Assembly: GCA_026414265.1 (NCBI GenBank)
Contig: JAOAJI010000001.1
Location: 4,009-63,467 of the forward strand
DNA from: Candidatus Micrarchaeota archaeon
GTDB taxonomy: Archaea; Micrarchaeota; Micrarchaeia; Anstonellales; SKW190
Direction of reading: 5' to 3'
Length of the DNA stretch: 59,459 nucleotides
Position 1 is the first letter of the stretch; the number at the start of each line of letters is the position of its first letter. Positions 14,168 through 59,459 of the stretch are shown here, one piece after another. The notes under the pieces are model-generated. The model saw only the letters and a program-made list of their open reading frames with translations. It was not told the origin of the DNA and did not search any database. Made by a program: the position numbers and the translations under genes.

Positions 14168-14245
14168 ATCTCCAAATCCCTGAACAACTTGTAACAAATG
14201 GATCAGCAATAACCATTATTAAACACTTGAGTTGATTATTCTTGT

Positions 14246-14530
14246 ATGGAAAAAATGATAAGAAAAATACTGGCACAACCGTTTGAAATAGACGAAAACC
14301 AAAAACAGGCTGTTCTTAACAATTCAAAAGTTATGAAACTACTTGCCTGTGCAGGTGCAGGTAAAACGGAAACTCTGGCAAGAAAGGTCTGCTACTTGAT
14401 CCTTGTGGAAAACCTCGAACCTGAAGAGATTGTTGTGTTTACGTTTAACGTCAGGGCCGCAAAAGAAATAAAAAGAAGGATCTATGACAGAATGGCGTTG
14501 TACGATTTAAAGAAGTGCAGAGTTGGTTAA
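14246..14530 (+). pseudogene. N-terminal fragment (about 85 aa) of a UvrD/PcrA-type superfamily-1 helicase
   Basis: Q-motif-like QKQAV followed by Walker A ACAGAGKTETL and motif Ia VVFTFNVRAAKE. The reading frame then ends, with roughly 600 aa of helicase missing. Confidence 0.7.
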
Positions 14531-14982
14531 AAACTGTTAGCGATAAGTCACAGAAGCAATATATACATGCATTAAGATACTTCTGTGAATTTTGTAGGAA
14601 AACACCAAAACAGTTGATATTGGAAAGGGATAAAGAAATTCGAAATACAGATCCTAATTCGAGAACAAGAATAAGAGACTTGGTTCTTGACTTTAGAAAA
14701 TACTTGGAAAAAGAGGGTTATGCTCCTAAGAGTATAAACTGTTGGGATGGTGCAGTAAGAAGTTTCTTCACAGCAGTACTATGAAGAGCTGGGATGATCA
14801 ATGTAAAGAATTATAGTGAAAGTCAAATTGCAAAGAGAAAGGATTTGGTGCCTACTTTAGAAGAATTAAAGAAAATGTTAGATGTATCAAACTTAGAAGA
14901 AAAATTCAGAATAATCTTTATAGCACAAACTGGAATGAGAGTGTCAGATGCTCTTAAACTCAAAGTTAGAGAATTGAGCTGA
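14515..14982 (+). pseudogene. Decayed tyrosine recombinase/integrase in two pieces (14515-14784 and 14794-14982)
   Basis: SAM-like N-domain (QKQYIHALRYFCEF...YAPKSIN..GAVRSFF), then a stop, then the catalytic domain up to the first Arg box (TGMRVSDALKLKV). The remaining catalytic residues are missing. Confidence 0.7.
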
Positions 14983-39638: not shown

Positions 39639-41697
39639 ATGAAGATGCCTGGAGAGGATATCATTATTGAAAGTGCTAATGAAAACACAAGTAATGAAAG
39701 AATTAAAGAATTAGAACAACTTAAAATGAATTATTTAAAAGAGTTAGAGAGACTACAGGAGGAAGAAAGAGAACTAATGCAAAAAAAAGATTACGAAAGT
39801 ATCAAAAGACTAAATCTAATAATTAGGCCCAATATCGCTGCCGTTAAAGAACAACTTGACCAAATTGAACAGCAACTAAGTTATGAGAGTTTATCACCAC
39901 TAGATAAAAAATTTATGACTTAGAAAAAAATATAGAAGAACTACAAAACAAAATAGAAGAGTTAGAAAAGCTTGGCTTTAAGAGAACTGCTGATCAACAA
40001 CACGACTTGACAAGATCCAGAAGTGAGCTACAAGAACTACAACGCGAACTACAAATATTAAAAGAACTCAAAAAACAAGACAGCACAACTGACACTACTT
40101 CGGCTGGAAAAAATAATACTGGTTCTAAAGAACCTGCTAACAAACCAGATCAATCAACCTCTAAAAATAATCAAGACGTTAACTCTGATAAACAACCTGA
40201 ACCACAAAAAGAGAATACGAACAAACATGCAAATGTTGATGTAAGTTCTCACGTGGATACACTAACCAAAATAAGAGAAAAATCACAAAGGATAACTGGC
40301 AAAGCGTCTAAAGTTAGAAGTATTACTTTTTTTTCACAAACTTTCCTGCCTGGGCAGTTCAACAAGTATTAAACAAACCTCAGGAAAATCAACAACAACC
40401 ACAAACTGCTGAAAATACAAACACACAACAAGGTAAAGAAGATGCTCTTAGAGTAGTAAAACAATCACCATATTCGTTAGCAAAATTAGGCCTTGGTATC
40501 GGAGTTCCTTTAGCTGTAAGCGCGCTGAGCTTAACAACCAACTTGCTATCAGGAATGCCGATAGTGAATGGAATCGTATCAGGAGTTGGTGCTGCTATAG
40601 GCGTGAAAGCATTGAGCGATACTCTTGCTAAAGCAAGTGTAATAAAAAGAACTGAAAAAGAAATAAGAAGTGTAAACATAGAATTGCTACACGTAGCGAT
40701 AGAAGAACAGAATAAATTGACTATTCCTCAACTAGGTGAAGCATTAACAACTACTCATGCAGACGTCTCGCTAACAACGATTTACTCTAAACATTATGAA
40801 AACTTAAGAAATTACCTAAACAACAATCCAGGAATGATATCTAGGTATATCAGAGCAGTAGCTGAGAGAAGTGTTGCATTGGCAGCCCATGATACAGTAG
40901 AGATGACTGAAGTTCAGAAATTCTTAGAATCGCATGTACAGGGAATTGCTGCTTTAATCGCTATAAAAAATGGAGCAGAATTCATTACAGAAGAACATGT
41001 TAAGAAGGCTCAAGAAGAACTAGACAAGGAAATTCAAAGCGCGAGCAAAAAAGGAAAATGGTACACTGCATTGAGATGGTTTATTTCTGCGATAGTTGGT
41101 ATAGTAACAGGCTGGTTTGCATGGTTTAAATCTTCTGAAGCAACAACTAGCGCCAATAAAACAGACGCATCAAGCACTACGAATTCTCAAGTGGAAACAA
41201 ATCAATCTGCCATAACACAACACGAAGGCGTTGTTACACCAGGAATAATAGATATCTCAACAGCAAAAAGCGATGTTCAAAGATTGATTGACTACATGAA
41301 GAACAACGAAGAAGTAGTTAAAAACATGTCATTCAGAGAGATAGTAGAAAAAGCAGGTCTACAAAGTGAAGAAGTTAAACAACAATTGATTGAAAGCTTT
41401 GTCTATACAGGTAAACCAATAGGTTTGGAAACACTTAGAAGATTCACAGGCTTGGACCCTGATTATTTAGCAGAACACGTTGTCAGAGTTGATGCAGCAA
41501 GAGATTCTGCAAATTTATCAGAATACCAAAAACTTTTGCATGAAGTAAGTAAAGGATTCGAAGAAGCCAAACAAACAGTTGATAAAACAGATCCTAAATG
41601 GAAAATTGCTCTAGACGCATTAAAGAAGCGATTAAACGATAAAGGAATTAACGTGGCAGAAGGAGGTACTCACATACCAAAAAGAAAAATAGTTTAA
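39639..41697 (+). pseudogene. Coiled-coil/membrane protein gene split into three frames by two 1-nt homopolymer shifts; paralog of 46190-48298
   Basis: Segments are 39639-39923, about 39908-40372, and about 40333-41697. The frame changes occur at the A6 run (39906-39911) and the T8 run (40327-40334). Adding one base at each gives one continuous reading frame that aligns with the intact paralog across both junctions. Confidence 0.75.
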
Positions 41698-46089: not shown

Positions 46090-46189
46090 TTTTTGTTATA
46101 AAAGAAAGCATTATTGCACTTTCTTATTGTTTTTTTTAACACATATTTTTTAAATAGATGGGTTTATTTCTTTCTTTAGGTGTTAGCTT

Positions 46190-48298
46190 ATGGCAATTGA
46201 CGATAGTGGCAATGCTCAAGAAAATGAAGAAAAAAAGAAAAATGAAGCAATTGAAGAAATTTTATCATTAAAAGATCCGAGCAAGAAAGAATCGAATAAA
46301 GGCACTGAAGAAAAAGGAAACAAAGAGAATCAAGGAAGCACACGTACAGAAACAAAAACACAAATTGAAAATTCAGTAGATAATCAGATACACCCATTGG
46401 TAGAGCTTCAGGAGATAAGAGAAAGGTGCCAAAGATTAGGGAATTTCAGCACTAAAGCAAGAAGTGCTATTCTTTTTTTAAGCAATTTCCATGCCTGGGC
46501 TCTAAAACAAGTCTTAAATCATGTGAATGGAATACAAACTAAAGATCAACAAATAGAACCAGTTCAACAACCAAATCAAAAGAGTTTTGGAAAGGTAATT
46601 GCTGGTGTTGTTGTTCTACCAGGAATGACAATGGCTTTAGGGCATCTCTTACCTGCAACTGGCTCGATCTTTGGCATGTTTACAATCCCGTATGCTCCAA
46701 TCATAAAAATTGGATTTGGAATTGCAGGCTCTGCACTAGCCTTGAAAAATCTGAGCGATGTCTTGGCTTTCAAGAGGGTTGATAAGAGAACCACTAATGT
46801 AATGGAAGAAATAGAAGAGTTGTTAAATGAACAAAATGAAAAGATAATAGAAGAGGACATTAGAGATTACGCAAAAGCGTTGGCTGAGAGATTAGTGAAC
46901 TTAGCAGCGCATGGGAATAACTCATTAAACTCTACTCAGCAACAAAACGATAACTCGATTGAATCTATTATGAATAGAGGATTAGGAACACTCAATTCAT
47001 TGATACAAAGGTATAAAACAGATAATCAAAACTATCAAGAATTTGATGCAAATAAACTTCTGTTAGAAGAGATAGAAAAGTCGAGAAGAAAAGGGAGAAT
47101 TTTTGCATGGCTAAGATTCTTCGGCTCTTTGATTGGAGGAATTGTTGGTGCATTTGGATTAAGGGCTTTGTTTGGCTTATTTGATAATCATGACCAAACC
47201 ATACAGCATAAACAAGGAATACAAACAGAAGAGAAGATTACAGAGACCCAAAATAGTGCAAAATTAACTGAGAGCACTAATCAAGAACAACTACAATCAA
47301 ATACTGCAAACCAAAGTTTGTCTAAACCTACTCAAACCCATGCAGTAGAAGAAAAAATATCTAGTGATAGAGAAATTAAAATAAACAAAAGCGATCAACC
47401 TATTCCTAAAACAGAAACTTTGCCTGAAACAAACAAACAGCAAATGAGTGGAAACGTGCCAATTAATAAACCAATAACAGATACTAAAGATATAATCGCA
47501 CCGTTAACTCCACCTAAAGCTACTGTACCTGAAATAGTATTCCAGCCACCTGAAATGCCAAAATTGATAGACCCTTTTGAATTACCTAAAGACGATACAG
47601 TTACAGAAGACAGTACTACTCAACACTATGAATCTTACAAAAGTGCAGAAGGTATCAAACCATTGAATAGTAAGACAGTATCAGAAGCTATAGATCCTTT
47701 GGCAATGAACAGAATCAGCGAAGAAGAAATTCTAGAGGCATCAAGAGGCAAAGTTTCTGCTGAAGAATTACTTGACAAAGATAGCGTACAAACAACTACA
47801 GCAAAAACAGATGACATTAGAAAACTTATTCAATACATAGAAGAAAACAAAGATAGGATAGATGGAAAAACCTTTGAAGAAATAGTTAAAAACGCAAAAT
47901 TAGAGGATAACGAAATTGCTGAACAAGTAATCAAAAGCTTCCAAGAAAAACAAGGAAAATTAAATGACGAAAGCTTGGACAACTTCAAGAGACTTGGAAA
48001 GATAGATCCAGATGCATTGACAAGACACGTAGAAACTATGAAAGAAAGTAGAGGAGTTGAAGAAAAGGCTTATGATATTTTTGAAAACAAAATCCTACCT
48101 AAAGATGTAAGAAATGCATTTGACGAAATGGATACAAGAAGATATGAATTATCAAACTCATTCAAGGATGCAAAAATACCTGGGAATGACGAACATGACT
48201 TGCAGAAGTACAGAGCGGCTGAACAGAAATTGAGAGAAGCAAACACAACTCTCAGAAATTTGAGCGAAAAATATATGAATCATAAACTAACCAAATAA
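46190..48298 (+). CDS. 702-aa coiled-coil/membrane protein, the intact paralog of 39639-41697
   Basis: Charged N-terminus, Gly-rich hydrophobic segments (GKVIAGVVVLPGMTMALG..., FGSLIGGIVGAFGL), a polar Q/T/P-rich spacer, and a conserved C-terminal domain (IRKLIQYIEENK...FEEIVKNAKL...IDPDALTRHVE). Confidence 0.7.
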   Translation: MAIDDSGNAQENEEKKKNEAIEEILSLKDPSKKESNKGTEEKGNKENQGSTRTETKTQIENSVDNQIHPLVELQEIRERCQRLGNFSTKARSAILFLSNFHAWALKQVLNHVNGIQTKDQQIEPVQQPNQKSFGKVIAGVVVLPGMTMALGHLLPATGSIFGMFTIPYAPIIKIGFGIAGSALALKNLSDVLAFKRVDKRTTNVMEEIEELLNEQNEKIIEEDIRDYAKALAERLVNLAAHGNNSLNSTQQQNDNSIESIMNRGLGTLNSLIQRYKTDNQNYQEFDANKLLLEEIEKSRRKGRIFAWLRFFGSLIGGIVGAFGLRALFGLFDNHDQTIQHKQGIQTEEKITETQNSAKLTESTNQEQLQSNTANQSLSKPTQTHAVEEKISSDREIKINKSDQPIPKTETLPETNKQQMSGNVPINKPITDTKDIIAPLTPPKATVPEIVFQPPEMPKLIDPFELPKDDTVTEDSTTQHYESYKSAEGIKPLNSKTVSEAIDPLAMNRISEEEILEASRGKVSAEELLDKDSVQTTTAKTDDIRKLIQYIEENKDRIDGKTFEEIVKNAKLEDNEIAEQVIKSFQEKQGKLNDESLDNFKRLGKIDPDALTRHVETMKESRGVEEKAYDIFENKILPKDVRNAFDEMDTRRYELSNSFKDAKIPGNDEHDLQKYRAAEQKLREANTTLRNLSEKYMNHKLTK

Positions 48299-57828: not shown

Positions 57829-58401
57829 ATGGAATCAAATGAGCTTGAACAAAAAATAGAAATGATGCTTAGTAGAATAAATGAACTGTACGATGAAGTT
57901 GTTAATCTAAATGTATATAAAAGAAACTCCTATGACGAATTCGTTAAAATTTGTGCTGACTTGTTATACTACATTAATAAATACAAAGATACTAGTAGTA
58001 TCATTTGGAACTCGAATCATGGCCATCTAGGATTGTTCATAAAAATAATGGAATTAGAATATGCCTTCTTTGTTAAATATCACAGAACGAATGCCTTACC
58101 TTGGTTCCTCGTAGCAGAATTCAGGCCTAAAATAAGAGACGTTGCAGAGGACATACTCATGTCTTACAAAGAAGAATACTGCCCAATACCTGGATTACAC
58201 GAATGGTGCAGACAATTACTTAAATACCTCAATAGAGTAATGACCAATGTTAACGCATTAGAATACGTTGACAAAGATTATGGAATTAAATTAGCAGAAA
58301 GCTTGAGATCCAGTTTAGAAAAAAATACGCGCTTTAAACAAGCCAATAATGATCGTCTTCATAAAAATAACTTAGATAAAAAAAACATACTCAGAAACTA
58401 A
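57829..58401 (+). CDS. Hypothetical helical protein
   Basis: The ORF is open from 57709; the ATG at 57829 (MESNELEQ) is the more plausible start. No motif recognised. This is the closest plus-strand gene to the CRISPR array. Confidence 0.45.
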   Translation: MESNELEQKIEMMLSRINELYDEVVNLNVYKRNSYDEFVKICADLLYYINKYKDTSSIIWNSNHGHLGLFIKIMELEYAFFVKYHRTNALPWFLVAEFRPKIRDVAEDILMSYKEEYCPIPGLHEWCRQLLKYLNRVMTNVNALEYVDKDYGIKLAESLRSSLEKNTRFKQANNDRLHKNNLDKKNILRN

Positions 58402-58421
58402 ATGCGTTATTCAACTAGTTC

Positions 58422-58952
58422 TTAAGATTTGCTGCTGATCTTAGACCTTGTTGATCTCATAACATGATAGTAGTACTCAATAACCGATTCGTAACCTGCT
58501 CTGTAATAATAGAAATAGAGAATTCGGATTATGTAATTATAAACAACAAATAAAATGAGAACATCCAAACCATAAACTAAAGAATAAGCAGGCAAAGCAG
58601 AAAAAATCGCTGTTAACATTCCAGTGAACACCGAAAAAAACGTAGTCCTGAAAGTATATTTGTCCTCGATAATACTTGGCTTGAAACTCTTAGGTAAATC
58701 ACCAACCCTGCTTTTAACTAAGAAATAACACTCCTTAACAGCATTGTTGAATAAGAACATACCAAAGATTCCTGTTATCAATGCCAGTAAAAATACCAGG
58801 CCGTTAGCATCTGCAAAATTGCCTTGGGCAATGCTAGGAAAAAGAACATACTTAACTATAACAAATATAAGAATAGTAACTATCATCGACGTCGTGATAA
58901 AATTATCCTGCTTTTTGTAAGTCTGCTTGGCGTGTTCGTAAAGCTCTTTCAT
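58422..58952 (-). CDS. Hypothetical membrane protein (4 TM)
   Basis: Hydrophobic helices. The ATG at 58952 is preferred over the upstream GTG. Confidence 0.5.
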   Translation of the reverse strand: MKELYEHAKQTYKKQDNFITTSMIVTILIFVIVKYVLFPSIAQGNFADANGLVFLLALITGIFGMFLFNNAVKECYFLVKSRVGDLPKSFKPSIIEDKYTFRTTFFSVFTGMLTAIFSALPAYSLVYGLDVLILFVVYNYIIRILYFYYYRAGYESVIEYYYHVMRSTRSKISSKS

Positions 58953-58985
58953 ACTTACAGGCGCTGCCACTGTCACTGCCACCAC

Positions 58986-59108
58986 ACTTCAAAACACACC
59001 AATTTCCACTTCCTTTCAGCATAAAAAACCAAAACTACCGCCACTAATCCGAAGCGCCCCATCTACTTCCTCATATCTTAAACTAATTCAACCACCAACA
59101 TTCAACAA
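58986..59108. other. A/C-rich, G-poor flank of the CRISPR array (leader or trailer)
   Basis: By hand count, only about 5 G in roughly 123 nt. This is a sharp compositional change from the neighbouring sequence. Confidence 0.5.
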
Positions 59109-59459
59109 CTTCAAGTCGTCTTTACATTGACAGGTCATGTTCTACTGAAAGAGTCTCAGTGGAAGGTCCTCACTGGTACAATAAGTGAGTCGCAGTCGTC
59201 TTTACATTGACAGGTCATGTTCTACGACCGGGCCGTAGCGTGCTCCATATAACCCAGTTTGTAGAAGTCGCAGTCGTCTTTACATTGACAGGTCATGTTC
59301 TACAACCTGTAATGCAAATTACAACTGCGACTTATGAGTGTCGCAGTCGTCTTTACATTGACAGGTCATGTTCTACTGGTGTTAGAGAGTTGAAGAGGGT
59401 GTTTTTTAACACAAAGTCGCAGTCGTCTTTACATTGACAGGTCATGTTCTACTTTGAAA
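59109..59459. CRISPR. CRISPR array with five 37-nt repeats (GTCGCAGTCGTCTTTACATTGACAGGTCATGTTCTAC), continuing past the window end
   Basis: Repeats at 59109-59145 (first 5 nt divergent), 59189-59225, 59267-59303, 59340-59376 and 59416-59452. Unique spacers of 43, 41, 36 and 39 nt. Confidence 0.95.

Follow-up and report, generated by a model that had tools for sequence, protein, structure and literature searches.

Archaea such as Pyrococcus furiosus combine dispersed CRISPR arrays, a shared Cas6, and both type I and type III effectors. The archaeal genome considered here resembles them in that its arrays lie far from the cas genes, its repeats are unstructured, and I-B and III-B modules coexist, but differs from Pyrococcus furiosus-type genomes by its two unrelated repeat classes (37 and 30 nt) and its single detectable Cas6. 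Another close counterpart is provided by the type III (Csm/Cmr) arrays of Thermus thermophilus, where the 5' handle of Csm crRNAs is AUUGCGAC, one base from the handle ACUGCGAC that we predict here (PMC8157118). As in Thermus thermophilus, the repeats would be Cas6-type class 1 repeats of approximately 36-37 nt whose last 8 nt give the crRNA handle. In contrast, there is no relationship over the remaining part of the repeat, the array belongs to an archaeon with a small genome, and the processing is one that we infer.

The window, meaning the whole stretch of 59,459 nt that was analysed (G000:C28:4009-63467), holds in its final 351 bases five copies of a 37-nt direct repeat, hereafter R1 (Table 1). 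Four of the five are exactly GTCGCAGTCGTCTTTACATTGACAGGTCATGTTCTAC, for which the expectation in shuffled sequence was 0 (100 shuffles), and the first has CTTCA in the place of GTCGC, with four mismatches that all lie within its first 5 nt. The repeat periods are 80, 78, 73 and 76 nt. Four complete spacers of 43, 41, 36 and 39 nt are present, together with only 7 nt of a fifth, and the positions confirm the original prediction of five repeats, these spacer lengths, and an array running off the window. Because the final base of the window is also the final base of contig C28, the array was cut by the assembly and not by the window. The locus combines at least three near-identical, regularly spaced direct repeats within the 23-50 nt range, unique spacers of 36-43 nt that in BLAST searches of the metagenome-assembled genome (MAG) match only themselves, a degenerate repeat in the window with a homologous AT-rich leader on contig C23 and in the sister genome G001, and cas genes on other contigs of the same MAG. 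It is a genuine, conventional CRISPR array end, corresponding to the leader-distal (trailer) part. We hold with good confidence that this is the trailer part of a conventional array belonging to a genus-specific, type III-associated family of 37-nt repeats. The 187-aa membrane protein encoded beside the trailer is not a Cas protein, its sole match being a weak one to a 2TM 'Effector' (E 0.002).

Table 1. Coordinates of the array end and of the adjoining features, numbered from the first base of the window.
Feature	Position	Strand	Remarks
CRISPR array, trailer end, 5 repeats + 4 full spacers + 7 nt	59109..59459	-	anatomy; strand from G001 operon-leader-array order
Trailer-terminal degenerate repeat	59109..59145	-	CTTCA for GTCGC on + strand; last 5 nt degenerate as transcribed
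Spacer 43 nt, 44% G+C, oldest assembled	59146..59188	-	
Repeat 2, exact consensus	59189..59225	-	
Spacer 41 nt, 54% G+C	59226..59266	-	
Repeat 3, exact consensus	59267..59303	-	
Spacer 36 nt, 36% G+C	59304..59339	-	
Repeat 4, exact consensus	59340..59376	-	
Spacer 39 nt, 36% G+C	59377..59415	-	
Repeat 5, exact consensus, then 7 nt of next spacer to contig end	59416..59452	-	
Trailer flank, G-depleted on + strand (5 G in last 120 nt), between array and 4-TM gene start	58986..59108	.	
187-aa membrane-protein gene adjoining trailer, co-directional with array	58422..58985	-	

The imperfect hairpin that had been read in the repeat did not hold. Its letters are present, but neither strand of the repeat is folded more stably than shuffled sequences (MFE -3.0 and -3.1 kcal/mol, z +0.68 and +0.30), and the homologous repeat of G001 has a changed loop and one stem pair broken without compensation. 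With neither thermodynamic nor covariation support, the hairpin was rejected. Variable spacer length (36-43 nt) and an unstructured repeat fit Cas6-dependent class 1 arrays, and the last 8 nt of the transcribed repeat are predicted to form a Cas6-derived crRNA handle, ACUGCGAC. Classification with repeat-family tools, which the original prediction had proposed, was run against Rfam and matched no family, either for the last 5.4 kb of the window (E <= 0.1) or for the contigs carrying the 37-nt or the 30-nt repeat (E <= 1). The window repeat falls outside every curated Rfam CRISPR-DR repeat family. The exact repeat was also absent from the metagenome_contigs and genome_contigs collections; a pattern made of the repeat termini only gave, among the matches listed for genome_contigs, chance matches, nearly all of them one per contig.

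The absence of the exact repeat from these collections and the lack of assembled sequence past the right edge of the window are the points in favour of an array serving a class 2 or other unfamiliar effector beyond the contig end, a reading that we regard as extremely improbable. Neither a TnpB/Cas12f Zn-ribbon match nor an above-chance anti-repeat is found in the MAG, the spacers are long and variable in length, and in G001 the homologous array adjoins a type III module, hence one of class 1. In detail, partial complements of the repeat outside the arrays reach at most 15 nt anywhere in the MAG, a length that does not exceed chance, and PF07282, the model run for class 2 (type II or V) effectors, gave no match. 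A presumed resemblance to Cas12f/Cas14 was rejected on the lack of a TnpB Zn-ribbon and of an anti-repeat and on the type III context in G001.

This type III context is the main evidence for the association of R1. G001 is the only other genome of the genus and is 75% complete. Its contig C65 encodes, on one strand, Csm3 (C-terminus, 77 bits), a Csm4-like protein, Csm5, Cas6, Cas4, Cas1 (181 bits) and Cas2, followed by an AT-rich leader of approximately 250 nt and then by at least six repeats CTAGAACATGTAAAGTCAATGTAAAGACGACTGCGAC. Compared with the reverse complement of the window repeat, this sequence is changed only at positions 1 and 11-14 (5/37). Searches allowing up to three mismatches missed it, and C65 was located through a Cas6 search in the family. 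The position of an R1-family repeat behind a Csm module indicates that the family is probably type III-associated, a link that rests on one related genome. The order operon, leader, array in G001 indicates that the crRNA sense corresponds to the minus strand of the window. The same order, read on that strand, supports a leader located to the right of the window, past the contig end, in agreement with the original prediction.

Ten more R1-type repeats lie at the end of G001 contig C15. In the innermost of these the degeneracy again affects the outer 5 nt (CGATT), which bears out the earlier interpretation of the degenerate first repeat of the window as trailer-terminal. The G001 arrays (C65 and C15) resemble those of the MAG in repeat identity (32/37, with the predicted handle and all of the 3' 23 nt unchanged), in spacer length (37-41 nt), in a homologous leader, in a trailer repeat degenerate in its outer 5 nt, and in a G-depleted trailer flank, that of C15 being as poor in G as that of the window. 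They differ in two respects. The G001 leader follows Csm3-5, Cas6, Cas4, Cas1 and Cas2, whereas the assembled leader of the MAG follows non-cas genes, and the G001 spacers have the G+C content of their own genome (30%), whereas those of the MAG average 44% against 33%. Within the C15 array (L225 10907-11099), two adjacent spacers are identical and a third has 25 nt in common with them, shifted in position; these spacers cover a ribosome-binding-site-like GAGGTGA and an ATG, and their sequences suggest repeated acquisition from one target region (three spacers).

Within the MAG, R1 recurs on contig C68 (40-149, opposite strand), where the repeat on the flank side is degenerate in a similar manner, with two mismatches, and on contig C23 (1-103), where it has one. 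With the window included, two array ends (C28 and C68) are alike and C23 is the opposite end. The reverse complement of the C23 flank can be aligned to the G001 leader, in one orientation only, with a local score of 46 (shuffle mean 22, sd 3.2, maximum 39; z 7.6); no such alignment was obtained for the flanks of C28 or C68. C23 therefore carries the leader end and the window the trailer end. The C23 leader is preceded not by cas2 but by an ankyrin-repeat gene, a lysyl-phosphatidylglycerol-synthase-like gene, aIF5B and Rad50. The left flanks of C28 and C68 show no significant similarity to each other (z 1.9). The only sequencing run found to contain the stretch is a DNA run of a hot springs metagenome, no RNA run being listed, and its contigs break inside the array and provide no extension. 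In these run contigs C28 and C68 have similar depths (21.1 vs 17.6), which favours two arrays of one genome over two strain haplotypes.

At three R1-family trailers, the approximately 120 nt beside the terminal repeat are markedly poor in G on the strand corresponding to the window plus strand. G counts, with P values calculated against genome windows, are 5/120 in the window (58986-59108, P 0.0013), 11/120 on C68 (150-350, P 0.048) and 5/120 on G001 C15 (L225 10290-10409, P 0.0013). The three flanks share no alignable similarity, and the leaders show no such depletion.

Spread over 117 contigs, the MAG totals 1.18 Mb, has a G+C content of 32.8% and is estimated to be 90.7% complete. Its archaeal markers are aIF5B, a zinc-hook Rad50, the ribosomal proteins S3Ae and S15, NAC, and an HMG-CoA synthase of archaeal type. 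Genome sizes in the phylum are 0.5-2 Mb, which suggests a DPANN-like, probably host-dependent, lifestyle. Genome-wide searches gave no match on C28 to Cas1, Cas2, Cas4, Cas6, RAMP, Cas7/DevR, Cas3-HD, Cas10 (two models) or the TnpB/Cas12f Zn-ribbon, so that the earlier statement that 59 kb contain no recognisable cas gene holds for the families searched. The suggestion of an orphan or novel array is not supported. In the whole MAG, Cmr4-6, a CARF effector, Cas1, Cas2, Cas6 and a type I-B module were found on other short contigs, and in G001 the repeat stands at a standard type III locus. Specifically, contig C80 encodes Cmr4 (173 bits), Cmr5 and Cmr6 (186 bits), and behind them a Cas1 (83.8 bits) cut off by the contig end that scores best as the I-B Cas1b; contig C93 carries a CARF-RelE-type protein (278 bits) and a Cmr4 N-terminus. 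Contig C14 opens with Cas2 (72.4 bits), followed by a 30-nt repeat (R2) and not by R1. Cas10 was not detected in the MAG or in G001 with three models, and neither stand-alone Cas4 nor a TnpB-type Zn-ribbon was found in the MAG. C80 and C87, the latter carrying type I-B genes, match the genome in G+C and in tetranucleotide use (r 0.96), although the cas-bearing contigs are short and bin membership is unprovable for the smallest. The tiny contigs C103, C112 and C6 carry fragments for IspD and a short-chain dehydrogenase, CheW and a histidine kinase, and may be bin contamination (estimated at 3.3%).

The type I-B genes raise the question of which effector the 37-nt arrays supply. Contig C87 encodes Cas7b (C-terminus), Cas5b and Cas3 (HD and helicase), forming a type I-B module, and the sole Cas6 found in the MAG heads what appears to be the type I-B operon. 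The N-terminal part of this Cas6 is on C15, which shares an exact overlap of 77 bp with the end of C94, and the gene comes immediately behind genes for ribosomal proteins. The arrays could then feed a type I-B Cascade (Cas8b-Cas7-Cas5 with Cas3), instead of or besides type III, with processing by the Cas6 of that operon and PAM-dependent targeting of DNA. Arrays shared by type I and type III effectors are well documented in archaea, and in-trans use of the 37-nt arrays by these genes on other contigs is possible. We nevertheless judge this reading unlikely. In G001 the repeat family follows a Csm-type module that includes a Cas6. The R1 repeat ends in ACTGCGAC, it lacks the ATTGAA(A/G)N 3' end of type I-B repeats, and it is not adjacent to the I-B operon. 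It is the 30-nt repeat, ending in ATTGAAAT, that adjoins Cas2 here, and the Cas1 of C80 is best scored as that of I-B; the end ATTGAAAT presumably resembles classical I-B repeats. A pairing of the 37-nt repeat with type I-B was dropped on the evidence of the G001 locus.

A different reading is that the 37-nt arrays of the MAG are relics, the Csm-Cas6-Cas4-Cas1-Cas2 module having been lost and processing and extension having ended. None of the seven proteins of the G001 module has a homologue in the MAG by tblastn, the C23 leader abuts the ankyrin-repeat gene at the position where G001 has cas2, and the leader-proximal C23 repeat carries a point mutation. Against this, the internal repeats are all identical, the leader has been conserved (z 7.6), the MAG contains other genes for type III and for adaptation, and the assembly, no more than 90.7% complete, is shattered exactly at its cas loci, with the second leader end left unassembled. 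Moreover, contigs break after one to four spacers and an extra spacer is seen in the run contigs; this could reflect population variation in spacer content, low coverage being also possible. Taken together, relics appear distinctly unlikely, less so than an unfamiliar effector but more so than a supply of crRNAs to type I-B.

The lack of G001 Csm-module homologues and the non-cas genes flanking the C23 leader indicate that the R1 arrays probably depend on cas genes at other places in the genome, acting in trans. Either the cognate module was lost and its service taken over in trans, or the module lies beside the second, unassembled leader. Cmr4-6 show no linkage to the 37-nt repeat in the assembly. 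For the preferred type III association, a promoter in the leader to the right of the window would drive transcription of the minus strand. Cas6 would cut each repeat 8 nt before its 3' end, giving crRNAs that start with the handle ACUGCGAC, and these would load into a type III effector, Cmr-type in the MAG, recognising complementary transcripts of an invader. The effector would cut the RNA, and Cas10, whose gene was not found here, would make cyclic oligoadenylate that switches on the CARF effector, while Cas1-Cas2 would add new spacers at the leader end.

The composition of the spacers sets this MAG apart. A recount gave the same G+C values as the earlier hand count (19/43, 22/41, 13/36 and 14/39), and the excess over the genome that had been claimed from it was confirmed, the six complete R1 spacers of the MAG averaging 44% G+C compared with 33% for 40-mers drawn at random from the genome (P about 3e-4, a value that rests on six spacers). 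The R2 spacers of the same MAG average 33.5% (n=6), and the R1-type spacers of G001 30% (n=14), the same as its contigs, which indicates that the excess is real and specific to the R1 spacers of this genome. A proposed reading of this difference is that the spacers derive from replicons of a different base composition. It would be in line with R1 arrays directed against the nucleic acids of another organism of the spring (for example a host archaeon, its plasmids or its viruses), and not against viruses of their own lineage, and run in trans by Cmr after loss of the Csm module, a combination that we consider very doubtful. The search for spacer targets that had been suggested was run and returned no protospacer, in a BLAST of the MAG against itself, in scans of viral contigs, or in a metagenome scan.

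The second repeat class is found on two contigs of the MAG. The 30-nt repeat GTCGAAATAAGACTAAGGTAGGATTGAAAT forms an array directly after Cas2 (C14:449-544) and also fills contig C98 (31-388), and it is identical in G001 (C35, L203 8242-8482). Elsewhere, at C27:21023-24212 (L062 6023-9212), a stand-alone Cas3''-type HD protein of 301 aa (PADLOC Cas3b, 82 bits) is encoded beside a 735-aa protein, and the syntenic position of G001 holds a 30-nt-repeat array. The family of the 735-aa protein, with paralogues at 40324-41691 and 46187-48295 of the window, is genus-specific and multicopy, with five matches in the MAG, four in G001 and none elsewhere in the order. The possibility that it is a hidden large subunit was rejected, given this distribution and the lack of an informative atlas or Pfam match.

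R1 is confined to two of the 176 genomes of the order, both from this genus, and R2 likewise. A relative of the MAG Cas6 is present in four of the 401 sampled genomes of the phylum. For Cas6 relatives, a word-based search returned the query alone, and an exhaustive one gave identities of at most 40%. The four contexts examined are contigs of 1-3 kb without arrays. As for Cas6 loci of the same order, those of G071 and G051 have no nearby array and that of G169 has an unrelated 30-nt repeat. The window array is conventional, class 1 and probably type III-associated and Cas6-processed, and stands in a lineage where CRISPR is rare, as CRISPR-Cas is in this small-genome archaeal phylum as a whole. 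A genus with I-B, type III (Cmr here, Csm in G001) and two repeat classes provides a useful case for the upkeep of immunity in reduced, probably symbiotic archaea. What goes beyond routine annotation are the G+C-rich spacers of the MAG and the recurrent G-depleted trailer flank, both from small samples.

Two further observations concern the assembly around the trailers. At window positions 14430-14506, within the first part of a UvrD-type helicase gene, C28 and C68 overlap by 77 bp. In the window (14231-14982) this gene ends after approximately 90 codons (Pfam UvrD-helicase, 65.8 bits), and next to it lies what is left of a phage-integrase SAM-like domain (27.1 bits); the region is a rearrangement junction or a strain polymorphism. 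The full-length helicase, with a C-terminal PD-(D/E)XK/Cas4-like end, is on C68, 0.5 kb from the other R1 trailer. Closer to the array, window positions 58321-58476 occur in the run contigs as two variants that differ by 11 substitutions and a 3-nt deletion, with depths of 6.4 and 12.8, indicating at least two strains in the sample.
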